The notes beneath the pieces are model-generated. The model was not told the origin of the DNA and made no database searches. It worked only from the letters and a program-made list of their open reading frames with translations. This document shows, piece after piece, positions 9,832-54,415 of a DNA stretch of 64,000 bases; within the stretch, counting starts at the first letter, position 1; each line of letters starts with the position of its first letter. Position numbers and translations under genes: made by a program. Source of the DNA: Anaerolineales bacterium (lineage in GTDB: Bacteria; Chloroflexota; Anaerolineae; Anaerolineales; Villigracilaceae); assembly GCA_050014715.1 (NCBI GenBank), contig JBEKCT010000002.1:1331-65330 (forward strand). Reading direction: 5' to 3'.

Positions 9832-11043
9832 CTATGCCAATTCCGCGACACGGGTTGCCAGAGTCTGCAAGAAGCGGGCGGCGGGGGCGCCATCCACCAA
9901 CCGGTGATCGATGGTCAGGCTGAGCGTCATTATCGGACACTGGACGATCTTTCCATCCTGAATGACCGGCCTCTCGGCGATCCGCCCAACTCCCAGAATC
10001 CCCACTTCTGGTGGGTTAAGTATAGGTGTAAAACCATCGATTCCAAAAATGCCCAGGTTCGTAATCGTGAAGGTCGAGCCGGAAAGGTCATCTGGCTGGC
10101 TTTTGCCCACCAGCGCCCGCTTTGTCAGGATGCCGAGTTCCTGGTGGATATCGATGATGGATTTTTGATCGGCGTCTCGCACGACCACAACCACCAAACC
10201 CGCCTCGGTATCCACTGCCAACCCGACGTGAACCTCCGGAAGCAGACGGATGGTCTGACCCTCCTGGCGAGCGTTCAAGCGCGGATGTTCGTGAAGCGCC
10301 CGAGCGACCAGTGAGATCAAAATTGCATTGTAGCTGGGCACGGGAGAAGATTCCCGCTGGGCATCGGCTTTTATCCGCTCGCGAGAGTTAACCAATCCAG
10401 AAGCATCGACTTCAGAGTGCAAGGTGAGCTGGGCAGTGGATTGCACAGAGAGGGTCATCCGTTCGGCGATGACTGCCCGAACCCCATTGATAGGCAGCGC
10501 TTGTTGTTGGAGCACAGCCGCCGGTTTCACCCTGGCAGGGGTAGAGGCGGACTGACGTCCGGCGATAGCCCGCTCGATGTCCTCTTGCCCGATGCGCCCG
10601 TCCGGACCACTGCTCTGGATGGACGCCAGATCGATGCCGTGTTCGGCCGCCAAGCGCTTGGCAAGAGGCGAAGCAAGGACCTTTCCCGGGCGAGCCATGG
10701 CTACTGTTGGCTGGGTGGGCGCTGCAGGCGCGCTGGCCTGTACGCTCGGAACGGAGGCACCGGTTGGCGCAGGGATTTCTTCCCTTACCAAACTGGCCTT
10801 CTCGCCTTCAGCTAAAATCATTGCTACAACTGTTCGCACCGGGACAGTTGCACCGGCTTCGACCAGGATCTTACCTAAAACACCATCCGCCTGGGCGGTC
10901 GATTCTGTTGTGACCTTATCGGTCTCGACAATAAAAAGTGACTCTCCACGTTTGACCGGGTCGCCCTCCTTCTTCAACCACTCAACGAGCAAACCCTCGC
11001 TCATGTTCAGTCCCAATTTAGGCATTACCACATAGGTTGGCAT
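9832..11043 (-). CDS. acoC: dihydrolipoamide acyltransferase (E2) of an acetoin/2-oxoacid dehydrogenase-type complex
   Basis: 403 aa. It has one lipoyl domain (VETDKVT), a peripheral-subunit-binding stretch (ASPLAKRLAAEHGIDL), and a catalytic domain ending in DHRLVDGA. Confidence 0.88.
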   Translation of the reverse strand: MPTYVVMPKLGLNMSEGLLVEWLKKEGDPVKRGESLFIVETDKVTTESTAQADGVLGKILVEAGATVPVRTVVAMILAEGEKASLVREEIPAPTGASVPSVQASAPAAPTQPTVAMARPGKVLASPLAKRLAAEHGIDLASIQSSGPDGRIGQEDIERAIAGRQSASTPARVKPAAVLQQQALPINGVRAVIAERMTLSVQSTAQLTLHSEVDASGLVNSRERIKADAQRESSPVPSYNAILISLVARALHEHPRLNARQEGQTIRLLPEVHVGLAVDTEAGLVVVVVRDADQKSIIDIHQELGILTKRALVGKSQPDDLSGSTFTITNLGIFGIDGFTPILNPPEVGILGVGRIAERPVIQDGKIVQCPIMTLSLTIDHRLVDGAPAARFLQTLATRVAELA

Positions 11044-11070
11044 GTAGGCATCTCTTTCTGAATCATATGA

Positions 11071-12084
11071 TTATGTCTTAAAAATAAATCGCTGGTCGCG
11101 AACAGCTTTCTCCAACACCCGGTCTACGTCAACAATCCATGGACCATCCATCCGCAAGCAGATAGCGGCATCTTCACCCGGTTTTACTTGAAGCTCGCGC
11201 TCCCCATCCAAAGCCAGCATCAATGGGCGCTCCGCGGTTAGTGGGTACAGCTGGTCAGGCTTCAGAACGTTTATCTCGCGCAGGGCAAGCCTGGCAAACA
11301 GACCAGGTCCAATAGGCGCCATGATAGTCATAACGCTTCCATCTTGGCCGATATTGGCGATCGCTCCGTAGGGATCGCGTGTCGAGATCGGACGGACCAT
11401 GCCGACGATGGTGGAAAGGCCGATCGTGGCAGGTGAGGCGCGTGTGACAGCCACCTGACGGATCTGCTCCGACTCCCAGACCGCCCGCGACCCGATAAAT
11501 GTGCTGGCGACTGCGGCGACATCCACCAGGGCATCGTCGACCGTCCGCCCGTCAATCTGGACCTCAAGCCGCTTGCTGCGAAAGCAGAGCTCCTGCTTTC
11601 CGGCTTCATTCTCTTGGGCAATTATCCCAGCGGCCAGTCCGGCAATCGTCCCCTCCACAAACTGCGGGAGCACATTATTCGTTCCGGTTGAGACGGGCAG
11701 GAGCGGAACATGGTAGGTTTCTTTCGCTGCCAGACGTGCAGTTCCATCACCGCCTATGGTGATGATGCAGCCAGCACCCATCTCGCGCAACATGCGGGCC
11801 GCGCGGATCGTGTCGATGCCAGCGCCGATGAAATCCATGTCCAGGATGCTCACCCCGGCAACCACTTCAGGGCTGCCGCGCCTGAGATCGTCGATCGCCT
11901 GCAGGCCAATCCCAAACTTATCAGGCATGACACGCACATCGCTGACCCCTGCTTCACTCAGGCCGAGTAGCATCCGGCGGACAATATTGGCTTTTTCGCG
12001 GTTCCCTATGAAGAAGGCATGCGCCACAAGTCGGCGGATATCTTTCCCGGAAGCCGGGTTGGCAATAATCCCTACCATTGTCAT
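11071..12084 (-). CDS. acoX: ATP-NAD kinase-like protein (AcoX-type)
   Basis: 337 aa. It has the GIIANPASGKD N-terminus and a GGDGT diacylglycerol/NAD-kinase motif. It is inserted between E1beta and E2, as in acoX-containing acetoin operons. Confidence 0.72.
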   Translation of the reverse strand: MTMVGIIANPASGKDIRRLVAHAFFIGNREKANIVRRMLLGLSEAGVSDVRVMPDKFGIGLQAIDDLRRGSPEVVAGVSILDMDFIGAGIDTIRAARMLREMGAGCIITIGGDGTARLAAKETYHVPLLPVSTGTNNVLPQFVEGTIAGLAAGIIAQENEAGKQELCFRSKRLEVQIDGRTVDDALVDVAAVASTFIGSRAVWESEQIRQVAVTRASPATIGLSTIVGMVRPISTRDPYGAIANIGQDGSVMTIMAPIGPGLFARLALREINVLKPDQLYPLTAERPLMLALDGERELQVKPGEDAAICLRMDGPWIVDVDRVLEKAVRDQRFIFKT

Positions 12085-12161: not shown

Positions 12162-13148
12162 TCAGGCGGGAACACGCTTCAACACACGGTTCACTGCGGC
12201 GACAATATCAGATTCTTTGGGCAACACGAACTCCTCGAGCACGGGGCTGAAAGGCACCGGGACGTCCTTGGCGGTTACGCGCACGATTGGCCCATCCAGG
12301 TAATCCATTGCCTCTTCGGCCACCAGGGCAGATACTTCACTGGAGATAGAGCAGTCGCGCCAGGTCTCCTGCACTACCACCAGGTGTCCGGTTTTCTTAA
12401 CCGATTCGAGCACCATTTCGCGGTCCAGTGGATCGACGGTGCGCAGGTCGACTACTTCACAGTCGATACCCTGCTTGGCCAGCTGCTCGGCGGCTGCCAG
12501 GCTCTTGTGGACCATTAAGGAATAGGTGACGATAGTTACATCCGAACCTTTACGCTTGATATCAGCTTTCCCGATCGGAATGGTATAGTCTTCTTCGGGA
12601 ACGTCACCTTTCATGGCATACAGTTTTTTGTGTTCGAAGAATAGCACAGTGTTGTTATCCCGGATTGCACTCTTTAACAGGCCCTTGGCATCGTATGGAG
12701 TGGCGGGCATGATCACTTTGATTCCGGGGACGAAGGAGAATATTGATTCAAAACTATTGGAGTGCTGTGCTCCGGCACTCAGATATCCGCCGACCGGGGC
12801 GCGTATCACCAACGGCATCTCGAGCACGCCACCGAACATATAGCGCATTTTTGCAGCCTGGTTGATGATCATTTCGCTCGCCAGTGTAATCCAATCTGAA
12901 AACTGCAGTTCGATTACCGGGCGGATGCCGGTTGCCGCTGCGCCGACGCCCATCCCAACGTAGCCAAGTTCGGAAACGGGCATATCGATCACCCGCTCAC
13001 GACCAAACTGCTCATACAGACCTTTCGTGCAGGCATTGGCCCCCCCATATGGGCCGATATCAATCCCCCATAGGATGACGTTTGCATCCCGACGCATTTC
13101 TTCGGCTAAGGCTTCGGCTATGGCCTGGTTGTAGAATAGCTGTCTCAT
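12162..13148 (-). CDS. acoB: E1 beta subunit, acetoin/2-oxoacid dehydrogenase type
   Basis: 328 aa. It has the pyrimidine-binding plus transketolase-C fold pattern (DTPISE-like PVSELG, HSNSFE, FFEHKKLY). It lies directly downstream of E1alpha. Confidence 0.9.
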   Translation of the reverse strand: MRQLFYNQAIAEALAEEMRRDANVILWGIDIGPYGGANACTKGLYEQFGRERVIDMPVSELGYVGMGVGAAATGIRPVIELQFSDWITLASEMIINQAAKMRYMFGGVLEMPLVIRAPVGGYLSAGAQHSNSFESIFSFVPGIKVIMPATPYDAKGLLKSAIRDNNTVLFFEHKKLYAMKGDVPEEDYTIPIGKADIKRKGSDVTIVTYSLMVHKSLAAAEQLAKQGIDCEVVDLRTVDPLDREMVLESVKKTGHLVVVQETWRDCSISSEVSALVAEEAMDYLDGPIVRVTAKDVPVPFSPVLEEFVLPKESDIVAAVNRVLKRVPA

Positions 13149-13169: not shown

Positions 13170-14129
13170 CTAGGCCCACAGGTCCGCCAAGGCGGTTTCT
13201 GGTTCAGGGAATGGGCTCTGGCGAGCGAATTCAACGGCTTCGTCCAGTTCGGTGATGACCTGTTTTTCGATGACCTGGGCATCTGCTTCGGTAATCACAC
13301 CCTGGTCAATCAGGAGCTGGCGATAAGGAGCGATCGGCTCGCGTTTCAGCCAGGCGGCCACTTCCTCGGGCGGGCGATAGGTATCAGGCTCGCCCTCAAA
13401 ATGGGTTCGCCAGCGATATGTCTTGCATTCAATCAATGTCGGGCCTTCCCCGGCCCTGGCACGTTGCACCGCTACTTTGGTAGTTTCATATACAGCTATA
13501 ACATCGTTGCCATCCACCACCACGCCGGGCATTCCATAGCTGGCCGCACGATCGGCGATATCCTCGATCTTGCGAACCTCGCTCTGGCGGGTGCCGACGG
13601 CGTACAGGTTGTTCTCACACACATATACGACGGGCAGGTTGAATGCTCCGGCGATGTTTAGCGATTCATGAAAGGTGCCCTCATTCGAGGCTCCATCACC
13701 GAAGAAACAGGCCACCACCTGGCCGCTCTTGCGCAACTTGGCGGACATGGCCGCCCCGGTCGCGATCGGGATACCGGCGCTCACGATCCCATTCGCCCCC
13801 AGGATGCCGAGCTTTGGCCAGGCGATGTGCATCGAACCACCTTTGCCTTTGTTATAGCCGGTGGACTTGGCAAATAACTCAGCCATCATGCGGCGCATCT
13901 CGCCGCCCTTGGCGATAATGTGCCCATGACCGCGGTGAGTACTGGTGATGTAATCATCGTCATTCAGGTTGACGCACACCCCGACTGCCACCGCCTCTTC
14001 CCCCAGATACAGATGAACAAACCCGGGTAATTCGCCCGCAGCGAACAGGTCTTTCACCCGGTCCTCAAAGTGGCGAATTTTGAGCATTCGCTCATACATC
14101 ATCAACAGTTTTTCTTTTGGGATATCCAT
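13170..14129 (-). CDS. acoA: E1 alpha subunit (TPP-dependent), acetoin/2-oxoacid dehydrogenase type
   Basis: 319 aa. It has STHRGHGH and the TPP motif GDGASNEG-...-CENN (GDG-x26-NN). Confidence 0.9.
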   Translation of the reverse strand: MDIPKEKLLMMYERMLKIRHFEDRVKDLFAAGELPGFVHLYLGEEAVAVGVCVNLNDDDYITSTHRGHGHIIAKGGEMRRMMAELFAKSTGYNKGKGGSMHIAWPKLGILGANGIVSAGIPIATGAAMSAKLRKSGQVVACFFGDGASNEGTFHESLNIAGAFNLPVVYVCENNLYAVGTRQSEVRKIEDIADRAASYGMPGVVVDGNDVIAVYETTKVAVQRARAGEGPTLIECKTYRWRTHFEGEPDTYRPPEEVAAWLKREPIAPYRQLLIDQGVITEADAQVIEKQVITELDEAVEFARQSPFPEPETALADLWA

Positions 14130-14153: not shown

Positions 14154-14960
14154 TTAGCAGCGCATCAGGCTCAGGGCTTCTGCCGCTGCCTGCTCAGATG
14201 CAACAGTTGGGGCAAACTCCAGCCCTATATACTTCTCATAGCCGGCTTCCTTGAGCGCTTTGAATACGTTCGCGTAATTAATTTCTCCTGTCCCGGGCTG
14301 ATGGCGTCCAGGGACATCAGCTACATGGATGTGGCCGATGACATCCAGATTATGGGTCAAGGAGGTGATCAAATTCCCTTCCATCACCTGCATGTGATAA
14401 ATATCGTACAATAGACGGATGTTGGGGCTGTCCACCGCACGAATCAGGTCAAAACCGAGCGCTGAGCCGTGCAGATAGTAACCAGGATGGTCCACATAGA
14501 TGTTGAGCGGTTCGAGCACCAGGGTTACCCCGGCTTTTTCCGCCAATGGGGCAATCGTTTTCAGCCCGGCCAGCACGTTTTCGTATTTCTCTTCTGCGGA
14601 AAGCTGTGGGTACTGATAACGGACCGAGCGGTCATCGCCCAGCTCGTCGGTGAGCAGGAACAGGGTATGGACGCCCATCTCCCTAGCCTTCTCCAGCGAT
14701 TTCTGGATGCCTGCAACGAATTCTGTGCGGTGCTCTGGATGGATCAGGGTGCCACCCAGGTTCGATTGGAAAGTCGCGATCTTGATCCCGGCCCTCTGGG
14801 TAGTTTCTTTGACGGTCGGCATATCCTTGTTGTCCCAGTTCCAGAACTCGATCGCGTCAAAACCTTGTTGGGCCGCCTTCTGGATGCGTTCAAGGAACGG
14901 ATATTCAGTATAGATCATTTCAATACATACGGATGTTTTCATACTCCTTCTATTGTCCAT
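14154..14960 (-). CDS. hydroxypyruvate-isomerase-like TIM-barrel protein (xylose isomerase-like fold)
   Basis: 268 aa. The N-terminus CIEMIYTEYPFLERIQKAAQQGFDAIEFW and the HIHVAD..GRHQPG motif are typical of the Hyi/sugar-phosphate isomerase-epimerase family. Confidence 0.8.
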   Translation of the reverse strand: MDNRRSMKTSVCIEMIYTEYPFLERIQKAAQQGFDAIEFWNWDNKDMPTVKETTQRAGIKIATFQSNLGGTLIHPEHRTEFVAGIQKSLEKAREMGVHTLFLLTDELGDDRSVRYQYPQLSAEEKYENVLAGLKTIAPLAEKAGVTLVLEPLNIYVDHPGYYLHGSALGFDLIRAVDSPNIRLLYDIYHMQVMEGNLITSLTHNLDVIGHIHVADVPGRHQPGTGEINYANVFKALKEAGYEKYIGLEFAPTVASEQAAAEALSLMRC

Positions 14961-15036: not shown

Positions 15037-16110
15037 CTATGATTTTGGGGTTTTTGCCCCCATCTTTAATAGATCGATCAAGAACGCGATATCGCGGCGG
15101 CCTTTTTCGCCATTCGTAATCGGCTCTTCGCCATTAACAATGCAGCCATAAAAATGACGCCATTCGCGCTTGAATGCTTCATCGTAAGAGACCAGCACCT
15201 GTTTTGTCACGCAGGTTTCCCCCTCCATTTCGTTCATTGTGATTTGGGTATTCGCGTTCTTTAAGTAAGGGAAGGGAAATTTGACTTCAATCATCCGGTT
15301 GCTGCCATAGGCAGTAATGCTCTCATCCCATTCGGTGCGATCCGGAATTAATCCAGTTTCCCAGATACAGCGGGTGTGCGGACCATAATTCAGGACGGCG
15401 ACCACAAAGGTATCAAACAGTTCCACATGCTGGATTTTGTCTGCCAGACCGAAGGCCTCATGCAGAACAATCGCATCATGGGAGCAGTTGTACATCAGCA
15501 GGCTGAAAGTCTCGTACAGGTCAGCATTCTCTTTCCCGATGGCCTTGAGCATTGCTTCGTATTCGTGTTCCCGTGATTTCTGGATTTCAACCGCAGGGAT
15601 ATCGTCCCCTACAAATAAATCGTAAATCTTATTGTTAATGGTATAGGTTCCCCCAAAGTCATGCACCCGGATGAGACGCAGATTCTGGATGTCCTTGAAT
15701 TTTCTGAGGGCCCATTCGTAAGCTGGGTCATATCGCTTCATATAAGCCACCATCAATTTAACGTTATTTGCGTGCGCGGCTGCAATCATCTGGTCACATT
15801 CTTTCAGGTTGAAAGCCATCGGCTTTTCCGTAATCACATGTTTGCCGGCGTTCATCGCGGCGACAGCAACGGGCGCATGGTCTTTATTGCAAATGCAAAC
15901 GACATCCAGTTCCGGGAGATTAACCAAGTCCAGGTAGTTCGTAAAACAATGCCTAATTCCATACTTACCGGCTACCGCTTCAGCCACCTTTTTGGAGATA
16001 TCGCACACAGCGACGAGTTCAAGGTTTGGTAGTTCCAGAATGTAGGGGATGTGCGCGATTTGCGCAATTTGACCACATCCGACGACGCCAACTTTCAATG
16101 TCTTTTCCAT
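15037..16110 (-). CDS. Gfo/Idh/MocA-family oxidoreductase
   Basis: 357 aa. It has the LKVGVVGCGQIAQIAH Rossmann N-terminus, an EKP motif (ITEKPMA), and a C-terminal alpha/beta domain of typical length. Confidence 0.85.
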   Translation of the reverse strand: MEKTLKVGVVGCGQIAQIAHIPYILELPNLELVAVCDISKKVAEAVAGKYGIRHCFTNYLDLVNLPELDVVCICNKDHAPVAVAAMNAGKHVITEKPMAFNLKECDQMIAAAHANNVKLMVAYMKRYDPAYEWALRKFKDIQNLRLIRVHDFGGTYTINNKIYDLFVGDDIPAVEIQKSREHEYEAMLKAIGKENADLYETFSLLMYNCSHDAIVLHEAFGLADKIQHVELFDTFVVAVLNYGPHTRCIWETGLIPDRTEWDESITAYGSNRMIEVKFPFPYLKNANTQITMNEMEGETCVTKQVLVSYDEAFKREWRHFYGCIVNGEEPITNGEKGRRDIAFLIDLLKMGAKTPKS

Positions 16111-17000: not shown

Positions 17001-18047
17001 ATGAAAACACTTGTCTGGTATGGAGCATTGGATGTGCGGTTGGAAGAGCGCCCGCTTCCCCGGCCTGGCTTGGGTGAATTATTGGTCCGTATCAAAGCTC
17101 TCGGGATATGCGGATCCGATTTGAAGCTTTACAAGTACGGGATCTTGGGTACTTTACAGCCAACCCATCCGTTCATTATGGGTCATGAAGGTGCTGGGCA
17201 GGTGGCACAGGTTGGTGACAGCGTAGAAGGATTTGAGGTGGGTGATCCGGTGATCATCAATCCACAGAGTGTCTGTGAGGATTGCTTTTACTGCCGGAAG
17301 GGCGAGCAAAATCTATGCGAGCGATTGAATTTCAAGAGTGTGACGACAGATGGGGTCTATTCAGAATTCGTCCTGGTTCGGGCAATCCAAGCCATCCACC
17401 TTCCACCCGGTTTTGATTTTGGGCTGGCTACGACAATCGAGCCAGTATCGGTGGCCGTCCAGGCACTGCGTTCCACCAAAATCTCTCCCTCTGATTCGGT
17501 CCTGATATTGGGTGCCGGGTCGATTGGTCTGGCGATTCTGGGCATCCTAGGCTCTATGGGTATCAGCCGGGTAGCGACGGTCGATCCACAGGAATTTGCT
17601 CTTGAGCGTGCCCGACAGGCAGGAGCTGCCTTGACCATCAATACCCAAAAAGCGGATTTAACCGGGGAAATAAGCAAGTTCTTCGGGTCGCGGGGGCCGG
17701 ATGTGGTGGTCGAGGCATCTGGATCCAGTGCAGCCCAGTCATTGGCCTTTGAGTACGCCCGGCCAGGCGGCGCGATCATCCTGGTCGGGATCTCAGCAGA
17801 GGCAAGCACAAATGTGAATATAAACCGCCTAGTACGTTCCAACCTTCGTGTTTTTGGATCGGTGCGCACGAGCGGCGATGCTTTTCCGGCCGCTGCCCGG
17901 CTGGTGACCTCGGGGCAGGTTGACACGCGAGGGTGGATCAGTCAGGTCTTTCCCTTTGAGAAAGCTCCGCAAGCGTTTGCATACACGATTGACCCAAATC
18001 ATCGGGTGACGAAGTGCTTGCTGGAATTCCAAGATCCGGGCAATTAA
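17001..18047 (+). CDS. Zn-dependent alcohol/polyol dehydrogenase (MDR family)
   Basis: 348 aa. It has GICGSDL, GHEGAGQV, the structural-Zn motif CEDCFYCRKG, and GAGSIGLA. Confidence 0.85.
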   Translation: MKTLVWYGALDVRLEERPLPRPGLGELLVRIKALGICGSDLKLYKYGILGTLQPTHPFIMGHEGAGQVAQVGDSVEGFEVGDPVIINPQSVCEDCFYCRKGEQNLCERLNFKSVTTDGVYSEFVLVRAIQAIHLPPGFDFGLATTIEPVSVAVQALRSTKISPSDSVLILGAGSIGLAILGILGSMGISRVATVDPQEFALERARQAGAALTINTQKADLTGEISKFFGSRGPDVVVEASGSSAAQSLAFEYARPGGAIILVGISAEASTNVNINRLVRSNLRVFGSVRTSGDAFPAAARLVTSGQVDTRGWISQVFPFEKAPQAFAYTIDPNHRVTKCLLEFQDPGN

Positions 18048-18174
18048 TGGCCGACCAGATCGATAGCCAAACACCCTATATACTGAAAGCGGCCTGGCCG
18101 AATGCGCCTTTTACCAAAACCGCCATCCCCCCGCTGTTAGCGGTGGAGAATTTCAGAAGAGGAGATAAATTATT

Positions 18175-19251: not shown

Positions 19252-19261
19252 GGACACACAA

Positions 19262-20065: not shown

Positions 20066-20078
20066 AAAGGTCATAAAT

Positions 20079-21823: not shown

Positions 21824-21835
21824 AAAGGCCTCCTC

Positions 21836-45106: not shown

Positions 45107-45152
45107 GCTTCGACCGATAGCATTACTTGAGACGTCGTGCGAACCGTAGGAA

Positions 45153-45226: not shown

Positions 45227-45284
45227 ACCCTGGCAATGCTCTCGTTCTTAGCCTCACCCCTTCACCAGAAAACAAAGAGGCCTC

Positions 45285-47096: not shown

Positions 47097-47099
47097 ACG

Positions 47100-48047
47100 A
47101 TGCCCACACCCAAGATTGCAGTAGTCGGCAGTTGCAATATGGATATTTATTCGTGGACCGATCACCTGCCGGAGCCCGGCGAGACGGTGATCGGCGACCG
47201 GTACCTGATGGTCATGGGTGGCAAAGGCGCCAACCAGGCAGTGGCTGCCTGCCGCCAGGGCGCCCAGGTGAGCATGATTGGCCGGGTTGGGGATGACCTG
47301 TTCGGTCAGCGCATGCTGGATACCCTGGTCAGCTACGAGGTAGACACATCCTTTGTCCAGGTGGATCACCAGACCGGGTCAGGAGTGGCACTGGTGATCG
47401 TGGACAAAAAGCCGGAGAACATTATCCTGGTGGTGCCGGGGACCAATATGCGCATTGAGCCAACCGATATTGACCCCGCGGCCGAGAGACTCCATGAGGC
47501 GGATGTATTGCTGCTTCAGATGGAGATCCCGCTCCCGACCATCGAGCATGCCCTCGACATCTCACGGCAGGGAAAGACGTTCTGCATCCTCAACCCTGCG
47601 CCGGCCCGGCCTCTCCCGGATCAGATTTTCCGGAAGATCGACTTAATCACCCCCAACCAGAACGAAGCTAAAGTCCTGACCGGCATCCCGGCGGATACGG
47701 TCAAAGGTGCGGAAGCAGCCGGAAAGGCGCTGATCGAGCGTGGGGTTCCGGCGGTAATCATCACGCTGGGAGCGCAGGGTGCGCTGCTTGTGCTTCCCAA
47801 CGAGACACACCACGTGGAAGGATTGCGCATCGAGGATGCGCTGGACACCACCGGCGCCGGGGATGCCTTCATGGGCGGGCTCTCGGTCGCCCTCGCCAAA
47901 GGAAAATCCTTGCAGCCGGCTGTCCGGTTTGCCAACGTCGTCGCGGCGCTCTCAACCCGGCGGCGAGGGGCAATGCCCTCCATGCCCAGCCGGGAGGAGG
48001 TGGAAGTGTTCATTCGGGATCATAATCTTGAATCCCTGGTCGCCTAA
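47100..48047 (+). CDS. rbsK: ribokinase (PfkB family)
   Basis: 315 aa, collinear with RbsK. Motifs seen are VVGSCNMD, PGETV.G, GGKGANQAVA, LNPAPA, TPNQNEA and DTTGAGDAF. Confidence 0.88.
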   Translation: MPTPKIAVVGSCNMDIYSWTDHLPEPGETVIGDRYLMVMGGKGANQAVAACRQGAQVSMIGRVGDDLFGQRMLDTLVSYEVDTSFVQVDHQTGSGVALVIVDKKPENIILVVPGTNMRIEPTDIDPAAERLHEADVLLLQMEIPLPTIEHALDISRQGKTFCILNPAPARPLPDQIFRKIDLITPNQNEAKVLTGIPADTVKGAEAAGKALIERGVPAVIITLGAQGALLVLPNETHHVEGLRIEDALDTTGAGDAFMGGLSVALAKGKSLQPAVRFANVVAALSTRRRGAMPSMPSREEVEVFIRDHNLESLVA

Positions 48048-48060
48048 AAGAGAGGAAAAA

Positions 48061-49158
48061 ATGGGCATTTCGAATGAGGCAAAGGTAAAAGAAGAACGGA
48101 TCCATCACCTGCTGGGTCAGCGTGGGTATGATTCGTTGCTGGTTGTGCGCCGGGAGAACTTTGCCTGGCTCAGCTGCGGTGGGCGGGCAGTCACTTCGTA
48201 TGTGGTGGAGAATGCGCCGGTGTATCTGCTGGTGACCCCCACCCGCAAGTATGCCATCGGATACTGCATGGACGTGCCGCGCACCTTTGACGAGGAACTG
48301 GCCGGCCAGGGGTATGAACCAGTGGCGCTGCCCACTTTTGGGAAGACCCCCGACCAGGCTGCCTTGGAGCTTGCCACGGGCCGCCTGGCAGCAGATTGCG
48401 CCATCGCCGGGCTGGATAACCTGGGGCCGGCGGTGACCGCACTCCACGAGCCGCTTTTGTCCGAGGAGATGGAGCGCTACCGTGCAGCCGGAAAAGAGGC
48501 CGGCGAGTTAATTCACGATCTGGCCAGCTGGGTCAGGCCCGGGATGTCCGAGCGCCAGGTCCTCGGCCACATGTGGGGGTTGTACGCCGAACACAATTTT
48601 GATGGGGACTGCATGTTCGTCGTTTCGGACGAGCGGATCCGCCGCTACCGGCACGCGGTGCCCTCCAATAAGGTCATCGAGCGGGTGGTGATCCTGGCTC
48701 CGGCAACCTATAAGTACGGCCTGCATTTTCCGGTCAGCCGGGTTGTTTATTTTGGCCAGCCCACGAAAGATGAACGCCGGCGTCATCTGGCGGCCTCCTC
48801 TATCCAGGCGGCGATGGTCGCCAGCGCAAAACCGGGCATGCACCTTACGACCATGCGTCAGACTTGCCTGGACCTCTTTGACCAGCTCGGCTTCCCAGAA
48901 GAGAAAACCAACCACATGCACGGTGGGCCGACTGGCTACCGAGTCAGCTATCCAGAACGCTGCCAGGATCCGAACGAAATGGTCAAGCCCGGTATGGCTC
49001 TTGGCTGGTATATCACCCTCGCAGGGGCAAAGAGCGAGGAGGTTACCCTGGTAGATGAGCAGGGTGGCCAGCTCATCACTGTAGATCCGACCTGGCCGAT
49101 GCTCGAGATCGAGTATCAGGGACAAAAAGTGGTTGTTCCGGATGTCCTGCTGCAATAG
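48061..49158 (+). CDS. M24-fold (creatinase/prolidase-like) protein, probably non-peptidase
   Basis: 365 aa from ATG 48061 (GAGAGGAAAAA upstream). The ORF-track start at 47779 overlaps rbsK and is rejected. It has the pita-bread-fold pattern HMHGGPTGY and KSEEVTLV. The usual Asp-Asp metal pair is not evident. Confidence 0.65.
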   Translation: MGISNEAKVKEERIHHLLGQRGYDSLLVVRRENFAWLSCGGRAVTSYVVENAPVYLLVTPTRKYAIGYCMDVPRTFDEELAGQGYEPVALPTFGKTPDQAALELATGRLAADCAIAGLDNLGPAVTALHEPLLSEEMERYRAAGKEAGELIHDLASWVRPGMSERQVLGHMWGLYAEHNFDGDCMFVVSDERIRRYRHAVPSNKVIERVVILAPATYKYGLHFPVSRVVYFGQPTKDERRRHLAASSIQAAMVASAKPGMHLTTMRQTCLDLFDQLGFPEEKTNHMHGGPTGYRVSYPERCQDPNEMVKPGMALGWYITLAGAKSEEVTLVDEQGGQLITVDPTWPMLEIEYQGQKVVVPDVLLQ

Positions 49159-49476
49159 GAGATTGAGACGTCAACTACCACCCGCTAATGGCTTATATCT
49201 GGAGTAATAGAGTGCCCTACTTTCAAAGCTGCTTACCTTTTCCGATACATTCGTCAGTAATCAGGGTTATGCGCTGGTGTACCCTGTGGCATTTCGATTG
49301 GATGACTTCTCTTACGACAGAGAGTGGGGCCTCCGGTCCCACAACAGCCCAGTTGGCAAGAATTTCTCGTACTTCCTGCAAACACCAGTGCCGTTTAATT
49401 AGAACAATCGTACCGCAAGAAAGGAGAGGCGGCTTTCTCCCGTGTTGAAACGGGTGGTTTCCACCGCCAAGAAACT

Positions 49477-50640
49477 ATGAAAATTGCGATTGGCAGCGAC
49501 CACGCAGGTTTTCCCTTGAAACAGACCGTTATGGCAGAGCTGCAGGAACTGGGTCATGAGGTGACCGACCTGGGCGCTTTTACCGATGCACACGCGGCTG
49601 ACGATTACCATTTCACCGGAGTGCGCGTGGCGGAGACGGTGGTCAGCGGACAGGCAGACCGGGGGATTGTCATCTGCGGGACGGGGATCGGCATCAGCAT
49701 CGCCGCCAACAAGATCCCCGGGGCAGACGTCGCCCTATGCAACGATCTCTATACAGCGCAGAAATCGCGCGAGCACAACAACGCCAATGTCCTGGCGATG
49801 GGGTCACGGGTCGTCGGCGAAGGTCTGGCGAAGGAGATCGTGCGTGTCTGGCTGGCGACCCCCTATGCAGGCGGCCGTCACGAGGCCCGCAATCTTAATC
49901 TGCGCAAAATAGAAGCCAGGTATTCCCGCACACCGCAGACCGGATCACGCCGCGCCAGCCGAGGGAAACCCGCACCTCTCCGCGGGCGTCTGGTCGATCT
50001 CTCTCAATTGATATATCCCTCCCAAGAGGAGTACCGCTTCGACGCGCAGGTTTACCCGGTTAGCGAACTGCTCCCCCAATACCACACCCCGGTGGGGCAG
50101 TGGTATGTCATGACCGAGGTGACCTTGTGGAGCCACGTAGGTACGCATATCGAGTCGCCGCTTCACTACATAAAGGATGGACCAGATGTGGCTGACCTGC
50201 CGCTCGAGCAGTTGATCGGCCCGGCGGTGGTCCTCGATTTCAGCCACAAGCAGACCAACGAACCCATCCAGCTGGAAGAACTGCGCGAAGCAGGGGACGT
50301 GCAGGTCGGGGATATCGTCATCCTCAAAACTGGGCGCGACCGGCTGTATCGGACGCCGCAGGCGCATGACCGTCCTTACCTCGCTGTGGAAGCCACCCAT
50401 TGGCTGGCGGAAGACCGCCGGATCGCCCTACTGGGTACAGATGCCTCGGGTTTTGAGGTGCGCGGGATCGATACTCAGCCGAACCACCAGATCCTGTTCG
50501 AGCGTGGCATCCCGGTGATCGAACACCTGACCAACCTGTCATCCCTCACCCGGAGCCGGGTTACACTAATCGTCCTGCCCTGGAAGGCCCGCGGCTTGGA
50601 TAGCTGCCCGGTGCGGGTGGTAGCCTTCGAAGAAGAATAA
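49477..50640 (+). CDS. fusion protein: RpiB/LacAB sugar-phosphate isomerase (N) + putative cyclase/formamidase-family domain (C)
   Basis: 387 aa. Residues 1-~148 read MKIAIGSDHAGFPLK...VICGTGIGISIAANK...GGRHEARNLNLRKIE (RpiB). An Arg/Ser/Pro linker follows. Residues ~170-387 carry the motif SHVGTHIESPLH (HxGTHxExPxH, 50134-50166), typical of the cyclase family. Confidence 0.8.
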   Translation: MKIAIGSDHAGFPLKQTVMAELQELGHEVTDLGAFTDAHAADDYHFTGVRVAETVVSGQADRGIVICGTGIGISIAANKIPGADVALCNDLYTAQKSREHNNANVLAMGSRVVGEGLAKEIVRVWLATPYAGGRHEARNLNLRKIEARYSRTPQTGSRRASRGKPAPLRGRLVDLSQLIYPSQEEYRFDAQVYPVSELLPQYHTPVGQWYVMTEVTLWSHVGTHIESPLHYIKDGPDVADLPLEQLIGPAVVLDFSHKQTNEPIQLEELREAGDVQVGDIVILKTGRDRLYRTPQAHDRPYLAVEATHWLAEDRRIALLGTDASGFEVRGIDTQPNHQILFERGIPVIEHLTNLSSLTRSRVTLIVLPWKARGLDSCPVRVVAFEEE

Positions 50641-50652: not shown

Positions 50653-51105
50653 ATGAAAATCATTATTGGCAGTGATCACGTTGGCTTCCCACTGAAGGAA
50701 ACGATTGTGCAGCATCTCAAGGACCGCGGATATGAGCCGGTAGATTTGGGCGTGCGGGACGAGACGCCGGTCGATTATCCGGATATCGGTCAGAAGCTGG
50801 CGGAGTGCGTTGCCCGAGGGGAGTACGAACGGGGGATCCTGGTGTGCGGTACGGGGATCGGCATGGCAATTGTGGCTAACAAAATCCCGGGTGTGCGAGC
50901 AGCAGTATGCCATGATCCCTATTCGGCTGACCGTGCGCGTAAAAGCAACAATGCTCAGATAATGACTCTGGGCTCCCTGGTGGTCGGCGCGGAGCTGGCC
51001 AAAATACTGGTTGATATCTGGCTGGCATCTGAATTTTCCGGTGGGCGATCAGCACCCAAGGTGGAAAAGATCAATGCCTTGGACGCTTATTACCGGAAAC
51101 GCTAA
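50653..51105 (+). CDS. rpiB: ribose-5-phosphate isomerase B / LacAB-family sugar-phosphate isomerase
   Basis: 150 aa. Motifs seen are MKIIIGSDHVGFPLK, ILVCGTGIGMAIVANK and GGRSAPKVEKI. Confidence 0.9.
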   Translation: MKIIIGSDHVGFPLKETIVQHLKDRGYEPVDLGVRDETPVDYPDIGQKLAECVARGEYERGILVCGTGIGMAIVANKIPGVRAAVCHDPYSADRARKSNNAQIMTLGSLVVGAELAKILVDIWLASEFSGGRSAPKVEKINALDAYYRKR

Positions 51106-51120: not shown

Positions 51121-52113
51121 TTGAATACTGACCCATTGGCAGTAGATAAATCGACATTACAGCATCTTCTGTATCAAATGCTTGTCATCCGGCGCTTTGA
51201 GGAAGCACTTTATCGGGCTTTTCAAACTGAGAAAATGCCCGGCACCATGCACCAAACGACCGGCCAGGAGGCGATTGCGGCGGGGGTTGGAGAGGCGCTC
51301 CAGCCCGGGGATGTGATGACTTCTACCCATCGCGGCCATGGGCATGCGATTGCCAAGGGGCTAAGCATTCGGAAACTGATGGCGGAGATGTACGCTCGCC
51401 AGACGGGAACGAGCCGGGGGATAGGCGGTTCGATGCACCTCTTCGACCTTGCCAACGGGTTTTTGGGCACGACAGGCGTGGTGGGGGCCGGGGTGCCGAT
51501 CGCGGCCGGTGCCGCGCTGGCCCTGCATCTGGAAGGCAATCACAGGGTGGCGATCGCATTCATGGGAGATGGAGCCATGAACCAGGGTGCCGTCCACGAG
51601 GCGATCAACCTGGCGGCGGTTTGGAAGCTGCCGGTGGTCTTTGTATGCGAGAACAACGGTTATGCCGTTTCACTGCCCATGCAGAAGGCTTTTGCAATCA
51701 GCGCCATCGCCGAACGGGCGGCAGGGTACGGTATTCCTGGGATGACGCTGGATGGCAACGATGTGTTGGCGATCTATGAAGCGGCCTGTGCCGCAGTTGC
51801 CCGGGCGCGGGCAGGTGATGGCCCCTCTTTCCTGGAGTGTCTGACTTACCGCCATAAAGGCCATTCACGCTTTGAGCCGGCCAGCTACAGACCAGCCGGG
51901 GAGCTGGATGCATGGCTAGAAAAAGACCCAATCAAAGGATTCTGTCAGCGGCTCATCAGCTCGGGTATTTTCAAAAATAGCGAGATCGATGCCGTGCAGG
52001 CTGAGGCTCAGGTGGCAGTGGACGATGCAATCGCCTTTGCCCACTCCAGCCCACCCGCATCGTTGGAGGAAGCGCTGCACTTGACCTTTGCTGACGGCGA
52101 AGAGAGCAGGTAG
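51121..52113 (+). CDS. E1 alpha subunit (TPP-dependent), paralogue 4
   Basis: 330 aa, TTG start 15 nt after the rpiB stop. It has STHRGHGH and GDGAMNQG...CENN (GDG-x26-NN). Confidence 0.9.
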   Translation: MNTDPLAVDKSTLQHLLYQMLVIRRFEEALYRAFQTEKMPGTMHQTTGQEAIAAGVGEALQPGDVMTSTHRGHGHAIAKGLSIRKLMAEMYARQTGTSRGIGGSMHLFDLANGFLGTTGVVGAGVPIAAGAALALHLEGNHRVAIAFMGDGAMNQGAVHEAINLAAVWKLPVVFVCENNGYAVSLPMQKAFAISAIAERAAGYGIPGMTLDGNDVLAIYEAACAAVARARAGDGPSFLECLTYRHKGHSRFEPASYRPAGELDAWLEKDPIKGFCQRLISSGIFKNSEIDAVQAEAQVAVDDAIAFAHSSPPASLEEALHLTFADGEESR

Positions 52114-52115
52114 TC

Positions 52116-53156
52116 ATGCTAACCATGAATATGTCACAAGCGATCAACCTGGCCCTGCGCGAGGAGATGCGCCGGAACGCTAAAGTAGTTCTATTGGGCG
52201 AGGATATCGGCCGCTTCGGCGGGGCTTTCCAAGTAACCAAAGGGCTGCTGGAGGAATTTGGAGAGGACCGCGTTCGGGACACCCCCCTGTCTGAGGCGGC
52301 GATCATCGGCTGTGCGGTCGGGATGGCCCTGATGGGCTGGCATCCGGTAGCCGAGATGCAGTATTCCGATTTCGTCACCTGCGGGTTTGACCAGCTGGTC
52401 AACCAGGCGGCAAAAATTCACCTGATGTCCGGAGGAGGGGCGTGCGTCCCGATGGTGTTGCGCTTGCCGATCGGGGCCAAAGAGCACGGTGCGCAGCACG
52501 ACCAGAGCCCGGAAGCCTGGTTCATGCACACCCCCGGTCTGAAAGTTGTCATCCCTTCTACCCCCTACGATGCCAAAGGCCTGCTGAAGAGCGCCATCCG
52601 CGACCCCAATCCGGTGGTCTTCTGCGAACACAAAGTCCTGTATGGTACCCAATCGGTGGGCGGCCGCGGGCTGCCGGATCCGAAAAACGGAGAGACCGGG
52701 AGCGGCCTGGGGGCACAGGTCCCTGAGGAAGAATATACGATTCCTTTGGGAGTAGCGGATTTAAAGCGGCCCGGCCGGGACGTGACGATCATTGCCACGG
52801 CACTCATGGTCCACCGGTCAGTTGAGGCCGCCCTCCAACTTGCACAGGAGGGGATCGAGGCGGAGGTTGTCGATCCACGCACGCTCGTCCCGCTCGACCG
52901 AGAGACCATCCTAGGGTCGGTTGCCCGCACTCACCGGGTGATGGTGGTGACCGAGGAAGCCCGAACAGGGTCAGCGGGAGCGGAGATCGCCGCGCTGATC
53001 GCCGAAGAGGGCTTTGACGAGCTGGATGCTCCGGTGGTGAGGCTGGGCGCACCGGATGTTCCCCTCCCCTTCGCGCCTCACTTGCAGGCGAAATTTATCC
53101 CAAGCGCTGCGGAGATCGCGCGGGTGGCCCGTAGGCTCGTCCAGAAACAGATTTAG
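52116..53156 (+). CDS. E1 beta subunit, paralogue 4 (with ~20-aa insertion)
   Basis: 346 aa. Motifs seen are RDTPLSE, QHDQSPE and FCEHKVLY. The extra segment SVGGRGLPDPKNGETGSGLGA is absent from the other three betas. Confidence 0.9.
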   Translation: MLTMNMSQAINLALREEMRRNAKVVLLGEDIGRFGGAFQVTKGLLEEFGEDRVRDTPLSEAAIIGCAVGMALMGWHPVAEMQYSDFVTCGFDQLVNQAAKIHLMSGGGACVPMVLRLPIGAKEHGAQHDQSPEAWFMHTPGLKVVIPSTPYDAKGLLKSAIRDPNPVVFCEHKVLYGTQSVGGRGLPDPKNGETGSGLGAQVPEEEYTIPLGVADLKRPGRDVTIIATALMVHRSVEAALQLAQEGIEAEVVDPRTLVPLDRETILGSVARTHRVMVVTEEARTGSAGAEIAALIAEEGFDELDAPVVRLGAPDVPLPFAPHLQAKFIPSAAEIARVARRLVQKQI

Positions 53157-53170
53157 TCTTTTGGAGAACT

Positions 53171-54415
53171 ATGTCGTTTGAAGTGATCATGCCCAACCTG
53201 GGAGTAGTAAGCGAAACCTCAACCTTACTGCGCTGGCTTGTCCAGCCGGGTGATGAAGTGCGGAGAGGGCAGCCCTTTTTTGAAGCTGAATCCGATAAAG
53301 CGACCGTAGAGATCGAAGCCGGGGAGTCGGGGCGGTTTATCCCTCTTGCAAGTGCAGGGGACTTGATTGAGGCTGGTAAGGTGATCGGGATGCTGTTGAG
53401 TCCAGGGGAAGAATATCCGCAGGAAGAAGACCTCCCAAACAAGACCTCCTCCGCATCCGTTGCCAGTCCCCTCAGGCCAGTCGCGTTGCCGATGAACAAC
53501 CCGGAGCCACCCACCACGGCTCGTTCGGGCCGGGTGATGGTCACCCCACTTGCCAGGCGTCTGGCTGCCCGGCAGGGTGTGGATATCACCAAAATTAGTG
53601 GGTCAGGACCGCGCGGAAGGATTGTGGAATCGGACGTGCGGCAGGTCATGGAGCAACAAGCCGGGAGGGGATTCTCGCTCGAGGAAAAATCCCCGTTGTC
53701 GACTTTGCGCGGTGTAATTGCCCGCCGGATGGAAGAGTCAGCGCATACCACCGCACCGGTCACCCTGGTCACCGAGGGGAATGCTGAAAGGCTGGTTTCC
53801 CTCCGCGAAAACCTGCAGCATCACCCGGGCATGACAGGGGAATGGGTTACCTATAACCTGCTCCTGGCCCGGATAACCGGGCAGGCTTTGCTTGACTTTC
53901 CCCTTTTGAATGCCTCGTTGAGCGCTGGCGAGATTACCTTCCATGATATGGTCAACATTGGTGTGGCAGTGGATACCGAGAGAGGTCTGATCGTGCCGGT
54001 CTTGAAAGATGTCACCCACCGCCCGCTCCTTGAGCTGGGGAAGGAATTGGCTGACCTGATCGGGCGGGCCCGCGCGGGCCGCTCTTTCCCAGAAGACTTA
54101 CAAGCCGGGACATTTACAATTACCAACTTAGGCCAATATGGGATCGATGCGTTCACCCCGGTGATTAATTTACCCGAATGCGCAATCTTAGGTATTGGTC
54201 GGATCCGCCGATCGCCGGTCGAACGGGATGGAGGGCTGATACTGGGACAGATGATTACCCTTTCGTTAACCTTTGATCATCGCCTGGTGGACGGCGCCCC
54301 CGCCGCCCGCTTCTTGCAACGCTTGATTCAGATCGTAGAGGCACCGGATCAGATTGGGATTTTACATTCAGGAGGGCTTGGTGAGCAGGAGGAAGGCTTA
54401 TCAACTGCGGCGTAA
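53171..54415 (+). CDS. dihydrolipoamide acyltransferase (E2), paralogue 3
   Basis: 414 aa, with TGGAGAA SD. It has a lipoyl domain (EAESDKAT), a binding domain (VTPLARRLAARQGVDI), and the catalytic DHRLVDGA. Confidence 0.9.
   Translation: MSFEVIMPNLGVVSETSTLLRWLVQPGDEVRRGQPFFEAESDKATVEIEAGESGRFIPLASAGDLIEAGKVIGMLLSPGEEYPQEEDLPNKTSSASVASPLRPVALPMNNPEPPTTARSGRVMVTPLARRLAARQGVDITKISGSGPRGRIVESDVRQVMEQQAGRGFSLEEKSPLSTLRGVIARRMEESAHTTAPVTLVTEGNAERLVSLRENLQHHPGMTGEWVTYNLLLARITGQALLDFPLLNASLSAGEITFHDMVNIGVAVDTERGLIVPVLKDVTHRPLLELGKELADLIGRARAGRSFPEDLQAGTFTITNLGQYGIDAFTPVINLPECAILGIGRIRRSPVERDGGLILGQMITLSLTFDHRLVDGAPAARFLQRLIQIVEAPDQIGILHSGGLGEQEEGLSTAA

Follow-up and report, generated by a model that had tools for sequence, protein, structure and literature searches.

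We describe three dehydrogenase systems encoded in a stretch of 64,000 nucleotides from an Anaerolineales bacterium (assembly GCA_050014715.1, contig JBEKCT010000002.1), hereafter called the window. The window contains four alpha/beta pairs of a thiamine pyrophosphate (TPP)-dependent E1 component and three genes for a lipoyl-bearing E2 component. They make up three systems, not four: sets A, B and C, with two E1 pairs in set B. In the explanation that we favor, and to which we give somewhat less than an even chance, all three are TPP- and lipoamide-dependent systems of the AcoAB type that comprise four distinct E1 subfamilies and use an E3 component encoded elsewhere; set A would cleave acetoin, set B a hydroxy-keto acid and set C a sugar phosphate. 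The case is built on gene content, family membership, conserved synteny and subfamily-specific motifs, all of which were observed. The closest database relatives of the window genes belong to Anaerolineae/Chloroflexota metagenome-assembled genomes (MAGs).

The E1 and E2 genes and their active-site signatures

A sequence-only reading of this DNA had listed four E1 pairs and three E2s, and the listing of open reading frames (ORFs), Pfam and NCBIfam all agreed with it. The eleven ORFs are present (Table 1), with E1_dh in all four alphas, Transket_pyr and Transketolase_C in all four betas, and Biotin_lipoyl, E3_binding and 2-oxoacid_dh in all three E2s. The motifs that it had noted were found as well: STHRGHGH and the TPP motif GDG-x26-NN in 4/4 E1 alphas, and E[TS]DK[VA] at residue 40 and DHRLVDG in 3/3 E2s. 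Each E1 alpha is directly followed by an E1 beta. Identity among the paralogs is 41–49% for the alphas, 49–52% for the betas and 41–45% for the E2s; at 41–52% identity they are therefore not recent duplicates, just as that reading had held. Its statement that the window lacks an E3 was also upheld, since Pyr_redox_2, the pyridine-nucleotide-disulfide oxidoreductase domain, was not found among the scanned window genes and none of the six reading frames of the window contains the E3 redox motif C[LVIT]NxGC. It is normal for such a cluster to lack an E3, as in the acoXABC clusters of P. putida and A. eutrophus, which list acoX and E1/E2 genes only (PMC10107126). Likewise, none of the four E1s lies beside tricarboxylic acid (TCA) cycle or branched-chain genes, as the gene context had been read.

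The E1 alphas were compared with two equivalog models of the pyruvate dehydrogenase (PDH) E1 alpha, TIGR03182/TIGR03181. All four matched the mitochondrial/alphaproteobacterial PDH model best, below its curated cut-off (336–369 versus 393.85 bits; NCBIfam), and scored 256–267 bits against the cut-off of 411.35 of the second PDH model. Solved E1s (human PDH, the T. thermophilus 2-oxoacid dehydrogenase and branched-chain 2-oxoacid dehydrogenases, BCKDHs) gave 115–219 bits, with BCKDH E1 alpha chains at 115–167 and the best solved-structure matches at 189–219 bits (alphas A and C tested). Acetoin-type E1 alphas of other phyla scored 268–342 bits against the window's four (BLASTP); the PDB set searched held no solved acetoin-type E1 structure. 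About 165 relatives were collected from pattern scans of genomes and metagenomes and grouped by their neighbors; most show 44–50% identity among the matches listed, and the locus counts given below (L-numbers) are likewise counts among the matches listed in those scans. In a neighbor-joining tree with human PDH and T. thermophilus E1 as outgroups, all four alphas fell within the HRGHGH family. Nesting in PDH or BCKDH clades was not seen, the E1s having grouped with neither of the two solved 2-oxoacid E1 references. The window E1s are like the heterotetrameric E1s of PDH and BCKDH complexes in architecture, fold, cofactors and conserved catalytic histidines; unlike them, they stay below the PDH equivalog cut-offs, carry HRGHGH where PDH and BCKDH have YRxHG, and have no TCA or branched-chain neighbors. 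Judged by sequence, the four E1s are all members of the acetoin-dehydrogenase-type (HRGHGH) family.

To locate the residues on either side of the two active-site histidines, we aligned the alphas to RGFCHL and YRYHGHSMSD of human PDHA1, in which we take the catalytic histidines to be H63 (RGFCH63L) and H263 (YRYHGH263S). The alpha of set A has the pocket LPGFVHLYL and the loop HFEGEP, identical to the "FV/HF" type of operons that carry acoX. Roughly half of the AcoX-linked operons have PGF[VI]HLY / xHFxG and most others an AL-type pocket; this AcoX-linked signature was derived here from synteny, not from characterized enzymes. It is present in A, and B1, B2 and C differ from it. The first alpha of set B (B1) reads IYGLAHSY / GHFVADDE, which is kept in L164, L166 and L168, and the second (B2) reads GGTTHL / GHYYGDAM, which is kept in L164 (83% identity). 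Both signatures are unique, and the B1 and B2 clades each had 100% bootstrap in the neighbor-joining tree. The C signature, MPGTMHQ / KGHSRFEP, is common to the eight readable related loci with a linked cyclase gene (see below); L170 has a variant loop and L004 is masked at this place. Four distinct signatures, each kept in other genomes, thus indicate four old, separately maintained substrate pockets, and the best explanation is that the four E1 alphas represent four predicted subfamilies of distinct function.

Set C and the DXR-II-linked operons

Cluster C spans 22 kb, with all its genes running in one direction, and falls into two parts, C1 and C2, separated by a 567-bp gap with a sigma-70 consensus inside it. 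In the window and nine related loci (L001–L004, L084, L085, L170, L172 and L173), a cyclase-family gene lies directly upstream of the E1 alpha gene, and 10/10 loci keep the order cyclase–E1 alpha–E1 beta–E2. The alphas of these relatives are 50–84% identical to that of set C, and their neighbors are otherwise different. RpiB is encoded by one or two genes in 7/10 of the loci, and in three of these an RpiB gene separates E1 beta from E2. At least six of the ten loci have a kinase of the FGGY or PfkB type, three a split transketolase and three BtpA/SgcQ-family genes. Transporters and regulators vary, the former being an Rbs-type ATP-binding cassette (ABC) system, an amino-acid-type ABC system, an AA-permease or EamA, and the latter SorC or GntR/UTRA. 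Both RpiB copies of the window keep the catalytic CGTGIG with its cysteine. The fusion of RpiB with the cyclase occurs only in the window and L001, and the genes are separate in the other loci. The metal motif of the window cyclase is HVGTHIESPLH, and its nearest structure is 1R61, an uncharacterized metal-dependent hydrolase. All ten E1-linked cyclases read HVGTHxExPxH, in which Glu replaces the Asp of the canonical HxGTHxDxPxH (the kynurenine-formamidase metal motif) and the histidines are kept. Since the cyclase, RpiB and kinase partners are kept across loci, the association of set C with sugar phosphates is not a local accident; the link is conserved.

We infer every substrate and product named in this work. 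Set C would be the last step of a sugar-phosphate route in which a pentose-like compound is imported by the Rbs-type ABC system and phosphorylated by the ribokinase or the FGGY kinase. The RpiB-type isomerases and the cyclase-family metallohydrolase would then convert it to a phosphorylated alpha-hydroxy-ketone. The set C E1 would cleave this ketone beside its carbonyl, and the acyl group would pass via the lipoyl-E2 to CoA. The likeliest class of substrate may be a 1-deoxy-ketose phosphate such as 1-deoxyxylulose-5-phosphate (DXP), which would give acetyl-CoA and glyceraldehyde-3-phosphate. Live alternatives are a pentulose phosphate, which would give glycolyl-CoA, an amino-ketose and a sugar-derived 2-oxo acid. 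Among known systems, LsrK/LsrG/LsrF (acting on phospho-AI-2) and phosphoketolase are functional analogs, which turn a phosphorylated deoxy-keto or keto-pentose into a C2 acyl unit (acetyl-CoA or acetyl-phosphate) and a triose phosphate. LsrF is a thiolase-like enzyme of the aldolase fold and phosphoketolase consists of a single TPP enzyme; a lipoyl-E2 takes part in neither case. Cluster C likewise has parts of the FGGY kinase, SorC regulator and Rbs-type ABC kinds, but no homolog of lsrF or lsrG was seen in the window.

Operon C1 contains a gene for an oxidoreductase (DRL) that is predicted to be DXR-II-type. Aligned to the Brucella structure 3UPL with phmmer, it carries all four of G121, T229, H250 and V351 (Brucella numbering), the residues that separate true DXR-II from its oxidoreductase relatives DLO1 and DLO2 (PMC3847144); a Chloroflexus homolog of DXR-II complemented a dxr mutant (PMC3847144). 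The C1 operon (SorC–SIS–ZnADH–DRL–FucI–transporter–FGGY) is conserved in seven Anaerolineae genomes, often followed by DUF4432 and ribulose-phosphate 3-epimerase; the loci noted for it are the window, L170, L171 and L177–L181. Across more than 120 Anaerolineae protein clusters, the DRL shows 75–93% identity. Since some members of the Chloroflexota rely on the mevalonate pathway (PMC3847144, PMC13001223), the role of DRL may not be isoprenoid synthesis. The cyclase–E1–E2 module adjoins the DXR-II operon, directly upstream in L170 and downstream in the window, with a different gene order.

Separately, a tight DXR-II–E1 alpha–E1 beta–E2 operon was found in at least 47 loci, mostly of alphaproteobacterial genomes and MAGs (a subset of L005–L083). 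Compared with the crystallized Brucella DXR-II, the DRLs of those 47 listed loci are 63–76% identical in 41 cases and 51–54% in six. A SorC regulator, a sugar kinase and a carbohydrate ABC system accompany these operons. Their E1 alphas share the signature RGLIHGTMHL / GHSKSDRNRYRTKEE and, around the active site, five additional basic residues that do not vary. The GTMH pocket and GHS[KR] loop are common to this clade and set C, and the two form separate clades in the tree. A basic-residue (phosphate) signature common to the DXR-II-linked and cyclase-linked E1s was considered and ruled out, the five basic positions being missing in set C. On the S. meliloti plasmid pRM41A (L169), the operon runs on into lpdA and lipA; the genes opposite it encode a SorC regulator, a carbohydrate ABC system and a PfkB kinase. 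On a Pseudoroseomonas plasmid, the DXR-II–E1–E2 core recurs together with genes of a glucitol-type phosphotransferase system (PTS). A Priestia (Bacillota) plasmid encodes E1 alpha–E1 beta–E2–lpdA, SorC, a major facilitator superfamily (MFS) transporter, DRL and FGGY beside a glucitol-type PTS, and its E1 alpha carries the DXR-II-linked signature. Among these cases (L169, L175 and L176), lpdA is present in two and lipA in one. Uptake and phosphorylation thus differ from operon to operon (ABC with PfkB kinase, MFS with FGGY kinase, or glucitol-type PTS), DXR-II is constant and a complete E1/E2(/E3) often follows it; the whole reads as a catabolic pathway.

In that pathway, a polyol would be converted to a polyol phosphate (MEP, the 4-phosphate of 2-C-methyl-D-erythritol), then to DXP by DXR-II working in reverse, and finally to acetyl-CoA and glyceraldehyde-3-phosphate. 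The gene context suggests that the DXR-II-linked E1/E2 cleaves 1-deoxyxylulose-5-phosphate into these two products. A wider reading, doubtful in our judgment and somewhat less probable than the favored one, is that acetoin-type E1/E2 subfamilies cleave phosphorylated 1-deoxy-ketoses and, together with reverse DXR-II (MEP to DXP) and a polyol PTS or an ABC system plus kinase, form an undescribed catabolism of 2-C-methyl-D-erythritol or 1-deoxyxylulose, of which set C would be the Anaerolineae variant. The proposed chemistry is like that of the DXS/DXR-II pair of the MEP pathway in that DXP, the proposed substrate, is the DXS product and TPP chemistry takes place at the same C2–C3 bond; the window has a DXR-II-type gene, and elsewhere E1/E2 operons begin with genuine DXR-II genes. 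It is unlike that pair in its direction, which would be catabolic and oxidative and would yield acetyl-CoA without consuming pyruvate, and in relying on a lipoamide-linked E1/E2 instead of DXS. Some organisms that lack the MEP pathway have a functional DXR-II, the distribution of which is patchy (PMC3847144), and no pattern had emerged in it according to a 2026 review (PMC13001223). The sequence-only reading had held that a CoA-conserving sugar route of this kind was undescribed. This stands in so far as no description of such a pathway was found in the literature on acetoin dehydrogenase, methylerythritol catabolism and DXR-II after 2014. A precedent for sugar-phosphate substrates is a 1986 report, as cited in PMC3424233, that pyruvate and acetoin dehydrogenases form 1-deoxyketoses.

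Beside these operons we noted a Bacillota variant. In Listeria monocytogenes (L182) and Ligilactobacillus salivarius (L183), DXR-II occurs with a glucitol-family PTS, GutM and SorC and with no E1/E2; the L. salivarius operon is followed by fsa and tkt. This context suggests that the Bacillota DXR-II acts on a polyol-phosphate substrate.

Sets A and B

Set A is an eight-gene minus-strand operon with intergenic gaps of 15–78 bp, in the order Gfo/Idh/MocA, xylose-isomerase-like TIM barrel, E1 alpha, E1 beta, acoX-like gene, E2, short-chain dehydrogenase/reductase (SDR) and zinc-dependent alcohol dehydrogenase (Zn-ADH). The acoX-like gene, missing from the sequence-only reading, is found only in set A. 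AcoX homologs of 35–44% identity hold the same position in at least 32 E1 alpha–E1 beta–X–E2 loci. In the characterized clusters of P. putida and A. eutrophus, of which acoX is a part, a butanediol dehydrogenase gene follows acoC (PMC10107126). The SDR and Zn-ADH of set A are of families to which butanediol dehydrogenases belong; for both, the NCBIfam models of meso-2,3-butanediol dehydrogenase, acetoin reductase and threonine-dehydrogenase-like proteins all scored below cut-off, and an assignment as butanediol dehydrogenase is unconfirmed. Given acoX, a pocket signature that matches and the two dehydrogenases that follow, set A is most simply read as ordinary catabolism of the acetoin/2,3-butanediol type. 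Its E1 would carry out acyloin cleavage of acetoin or a close analog to acetyl-CoA and an aldehyde.

The gene order is acoABCL in B. subtilis and acoABXCL in Clostridium magnum, and acoX is not universal among characterized acetoin systems. Like AcoABC(L)/AcoX systems, in which E3 is often provided in trans, the window systems combine a TPP-dependent E1 alpha/beta bearing HRGHGH with a lipoyl E2, and set A shares acoX and the downstream dehydrogenases with them. Sets B and C are unlike them in having no acoX, other active-site residues and other partners: an FCD regulator, a metallo-beta-lactamase (MBL)-fold hydrolase and a reductase in B; a cyclase, RpiB, kinases and transketolase in C. A sigma-54 AcoR-type activator domain was not among the Pfam results for the scanned window genes, where the regulators are GntR/FCD, SorC and LacI; such an activator is not universal in the acetoin dehydrogenase family.

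Set B is a nine-gene minus-strand operon in which two E1 pairs share a single E2. Its order is GntR/FCD regulator, E1 alpha, E1 beta, E2, beta-hydroxyacid dehydrogenase, second E1 alpha, second E1 beta, NAD-epimerase-family protein and aldo-keto reductase. For the B1 alpha, more than 100 homologous clusters show 66–91% identity; their members are 358–360 amino acids long, and the true start of the B1 alpha is probably Met16 (Table 1). The in-operon reductase exceeds the TIGR01505 cut-off (355 versus 341 bits) and holds the same position in L164 (78% identity). Three independent contigs (L164, L166 and L168) keep the GntR/FCD regulator, MBL-fold hydrolase, E1, E2 or lipoyl protein, and second E1 (sometimes fused). 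In all three, the MBL ortholog (60–69% identity) lies directly upstream of a B1-type E1 alpha; in the window, the MBL and SDR orthologs of the module sit in the cluster convergent on set B. The beta-hydroxyacid dehydrogenase is in the operon in one of the three, a transaldolase-like gene is nearby in 3/3 and an SDR in 2/3. The B module with its two E1s is conserved at 68–80% identity. Thus, set B is a conserved Anaerolineae module.

The transaldolase-like ortholog adjoins the B-type cluster in L164 (74% identity), with weaker ones in L166 and L168. As it stands beside a dual-E1 cluster in other genomes, the arrangement in the window looks rearranged, and the two genes at 1491–3668 are probably part of set B metabolism. 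A glycerate 2-kinase-like gene lies at 60795–62141, with NCBIfam matches below cut-off. The FCD regulator of the LldR/PdhR/GlcC kind, the MBL-fold hydrolase, the tartronate-semialdehyde reductase and the transaldolase-like gene argue for hydroxy/keto acids rather than neutral ketoses. This context points to hydroxy/keto-acid chemistry with an aldehyde product that would be reduced to glycerate. Two E1s would feed one E2 in a pathway of hydroxy-keto acid metabolism with two TPP-dependent cleavages, and one aldehyde product would be reduced by the enzyme resembling tartronate-semialdehyde reductase.

Some further features of the B-type clusters were recorded. In L166 and L168 the E2 appears as stand-alone lipoyl proteins of 79–92 amino acids, with a separate 212-aa catalytic domain in L166, and the second E1 is a fused alpha–beta protein of 596–737 amino acids; these splits and fusions may be real or frameshift errors of long-read assemblies. 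URO-D/MtaA-like and folate C1 genes adjoin the cluster in L166, and in the window an MttB-family (trimethylamine methyltransferase-like) gene at 3872–5329 scores below the pyrrolysine-type equivalog cut-off. The SftI isomerase model as best match of the FucI-like gene, together with the transaldolase-like and YihU-like genes of the window, had prompted the idea of a sulfoquinovose pathway. It was rejected: the SftI match gave 100 bits versus a cut-off of 700, and no sulfonate gene was seen.

Competing explanations and features of the window

Several observations weigh against the explanation that we favor. The trees were built by neighbor joining with two solved E1s as outgroups, with characterized AcoA, bacterial PDH and bacterial BCKDH outside the tree, and their sample is biased towards relatives of set C. 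Set A opens with Gfo/Idh/MocA and hydroxypyruvate/2-oxo-tetronate-isomerase-like genes, and its closest relatives, L137 and L145, lie next to a PfkB kinase and a sugar ABC system, respectively; with such sugar-type neighbors, plain acetoin is not certain as its substrate. Some cyclase-linked loci have amino-acid-type transporters and GntR/UTRA regulators, which suit a substrate of the amino-sugar or Amadori type better than they suit DXP. Set C was found by alignment to lack the five R/H/K positions that are invariant in the DXR-II-linked E1 alpha. Its GHS loop resembles that of true 2-oxoacid E1s, which makes a sugar-derived 2-oxo acid a serious alternative substrate. Finally, the DXR-II operon adjoins a cyclase–E1/E2 module in only 2/7 Anaerolineae genomes examined. 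The local link between DXR-II and set C is therefore suggestive only and might reflect coincidence within a "sugar island". The idea that set C is paired with DXR-II as a general rule was rejected, since five other Anaerolineae genomes have the operon with no E1/E2 within 10 kb.

One rival explanation, to which we assign a smaller but still appreciable probability, is that sets B and C are genuine 2-oxoacid dehydrogenase complexes acting on sugar-derived 2-keto acids, with an acyl-CoA one carbon shorter as product and no acyloin cleavage. The acids would arise when the metallohydrolase opens a keto-lactone or keto-lactam, or would be hydroxypyruvate or oxaloglycolate from tartrate. The PDH-like GHS loop is kept both in set C and in the DXR-II-linked clade, the three E2s are standard 2-oxoacid_dh acyltransferases, and relatives of the cyclase include isatin hydrolase, an enzyme that makes a 2-oxo acid. 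Set B, with its LldR/PdhR/GlcC-like FCD regulator and tartronate-semialdehyde reductase, would suit such a role, and tartrate dehydrogenase and glycerate kinase are encoded in the same window. However, 4/4 alphas have HRGHGH instead of the YRxHG of PDH/BCKDH and miss the PDH equivalog cut-offs. For set C, the presence of RpiB isomerases and sugar kinases implies neutral sugars in phosphorylated form, and what DXR-II would supply in the parallel operons is a ketose phosphate, not a 2-oxo acid. It is improbable, in our estimate, that the four are simply ordinary paralogs of the acetoin, PDH or BCKDH type in a carbohydrate-rich region where sugar genes are incidental neighbors. Anaerolineae genomes are indeed dense in sugar operons, set A looks canonical, relatives are annotated as pyruvate or acetoin dehydrogenase subunits, and the DXR-II operon of Anaerolineae usually comes with no E1/E2. 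Against this, the cyclase–E1–E2(–RpiB) order persists in 10/10 loci down to 50% identity as other neighbors change, the two-E1 module of set B is kept at 68–80%, the four active-site signatures are distinct and each conserved, and none of the four alphas reaches a PDH equivalog score. We think it very improbable that the E1s are mainly carboligases that join an acetyl donor to an aldose phosphate and so produce 1-deoxy-ketoses, for instance DXP, which would serve an isoprenoid or cofactor route that depends on DXR-II. The 1986 report cited in PMC3424233 fits this, a mutant E. coli PDH E1 can replace DXS (PMC3424233), and DXR-II genes are adjacent in many genomes; but E2, E3 and lipoyl synthase, all of which are co-encoded, would be superfluous for a carboligase, the uptake systems, kinases and SorC-type repressors are typical of catabolism, and the mevalonate pathway serves some Chloroflexota (PMC3847144, PMC13001223).

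The sequence-only reading had proposed a family of complexes that cleave ketoses or deoxy-ketoses, in sugar-gene neighborhoods. For set C this is supported by the sugar link kept in 10/10 loci and by the independent DXR-II-linked E1/E2 clade. For the others it is not: set A looks acetoin-like, and the neighborhood of set B, conserved as a module in three other loci, has partners of the hydroxy/keto-acid type, not of the ketose type. Partly supported, then, is a picture of one probably ordinary acetoin system and three conserved, uncharacterized E1 subtypes, one of which appears firmly tied to sugar-phosphate operons. The cross-phylum association of DXR-II with E1/E2 turns the idea of a deoxy-ketose-cleaving complex into a concrete, testable hypothesis. 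If it is true, a C2 unit could be removed from a sugar phosphate in a third way, by lipoamide-dependent acyloin cleavage, besides aldolases/transketolases and phosphoketolase, with the unit conserved as acyl-CoA and NADH gained. A catabolic role would also account for functional DXR-II in organisms without the MEP pathway and for its patchy distribution (PMC3847144, PMC13001223). The sequence signatures that define the three uncharacterized E1 subfamilies could replace the blanket label "pyruvate/acetoin dehydrogenase E1", which is widespread in Chloroflexota and on rhizobial plasmids.

Table 1. Features of the window, in order of position
Feature	Position	Strand	Basis
Divergent transaldolase-like protein	1491-2555	+	Pfam TAL_FSA
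Tartrate dehydrogenase	2595-3668	+	TIGR02089, 538 bits vs cut-off 470
Zn-ADH, candidate diol/acetoin dehydrogenase, downstream of E2-A	7996-9021	-	Pfam
SDR, candidate diol/acetoin dehydrogenase, downstream of E2-A	9036-9800	-	Pfam
E2 A, lipoyl + E3-binding + acyltransferase	9832-11043	-	Pfam; ETDKV, DHRLVDG
AcoX-like, NAD-kinase fold, between E1 beta and E2	11071-12084	-	Pfam NAD_kinase, 49.5 bits
E1 beta A	12162-13148	-	Transket_pyr + Transketolase_C
E1 alpha A (AcoA-like)	13170-14129	-	Pfam E1_dh, 305 bits; motifs
Xylose-isomerase-like TIM barrel, hydroxypyruvate / 2-oxo-tetronate isomerase-like	14154-14960	-	Pfam, NCBIfam
Gfo/Idh/MocA oxidoreductase heading set A operon	15037-16110	-	Pfam, NCBIfam
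Cluster convergent on set B: two Zn-ADH, SDR, two-domain VOC/glyoxalase, MBL-fold hydrolase, unknown 258-aa protein	17001-22612	+	Pfam
MBL-fold hydrolase	21053-21823	+	Pfam
Aldo-keto reductase ending set B operon	22627-23664	-	Pfam, NCBIfam
NAD-dependent epimerase/dehydratase-family protein	23865-24830	-	Pfam, NCBIfam
E1 beta B2	24836-25816	-	Pfam
E1 alpha B2	25817-26791	-	Pfam
Beta-hydroxyacid dehydrogenase, tartronate-semialdehyde-reductase type, between E2-B and second E1	26788-27699	-	TIGR01505
E2 B, sole E2 for both E1 pairs	27720-28904	-	Pfam; ETDKA, DHRLVDG
E1 beta B1	28936-29916	-	Pfam
E1 alpha B1	29913-31034	-	Pfam; true start probably Met16, ~30989
GntR/FCD regulator of set B	31053-31805	-	Pfam; best NCBIfam NanR, LldR, PdhR, GlcC
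Operon C1: SorC regulator, SIS isomerase, Zn-ADH, DXR-II-type oxidoreductase, FucI-like isomerase, FGGY (xylulokinase-like) kinase	32579-39606	+	Pfam, NCBIfam
DXR-II-type (DRL) oxidoreductase, predicted	35279-36625	+	45% identical to Brucella DRL structure 3UPL
Sigma-70 consensus TTGACA-16-TATAAT, 12/12, ahead of C2	39730-39757	+	Consensus match only
Operon C2a	40173-49158	+	Pfam; same order in L001
Rbs-type ABC transporter	40173-45106	+	Pfam
Split transketolase	45285-47096	+	Pfam
Ribokinase	47100-48047	+	TIGR02152, 341 bits vs cut-off 300
M24-fold protein	48061-49158	+	Pfam
RpiB-cyclase fusion	49477-50640	+	Pfam; cyclase 101.6 bits (PF04199)
Second RpiB	50653-51105	+	Pfam
E1 alpha C	51121-52113	+	Pfam
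E1 beta C	52116-53156	+	Pfam
E2 C	53171-54415	+	Pfam

Rfam and tRNA scans of the window gave no match. Within cluster C, the M24 and RpiB-cyclase genes are separated by a 319-bp gap (49158–49477), which measures only 12 bp in the 84%-identical L001. No promoter- or terminator-like site was found in this gap on the coding (+) strand; the minus strand has one terminator-like hairpin, at 49424–49441. Two xylose-isomerase-like TIM-barrel genes at 54630–56504 converge on E2-C, and one of them exceeds the D-psicose 3-epimerase equivalog cut-off (382 versus 300 bits). Between 56000 and 63400 the GC content drops to 0.47, and this region contains a truncated DDE transposase (59693–60286) and a BRO-N domain protein (62563–63402); it may be a mobile-element scar beside the glycerate 2-kinase gene.

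Two other recurrent contexts of acetoin-type E1/E2 genes were met among the relatives, each with an active-site signature of its own. One has an M24 (creatinase/prolidase-fold) gene upstream and a beta-hydroxyacid dehydrogenase downstream, and in the other E1 alpha–E1 beta–E2 is followed by a split transketolase. Loci with these two contexts are L042, L062, L126, L016 and L115; L033, L113, L114, L121 and L127.

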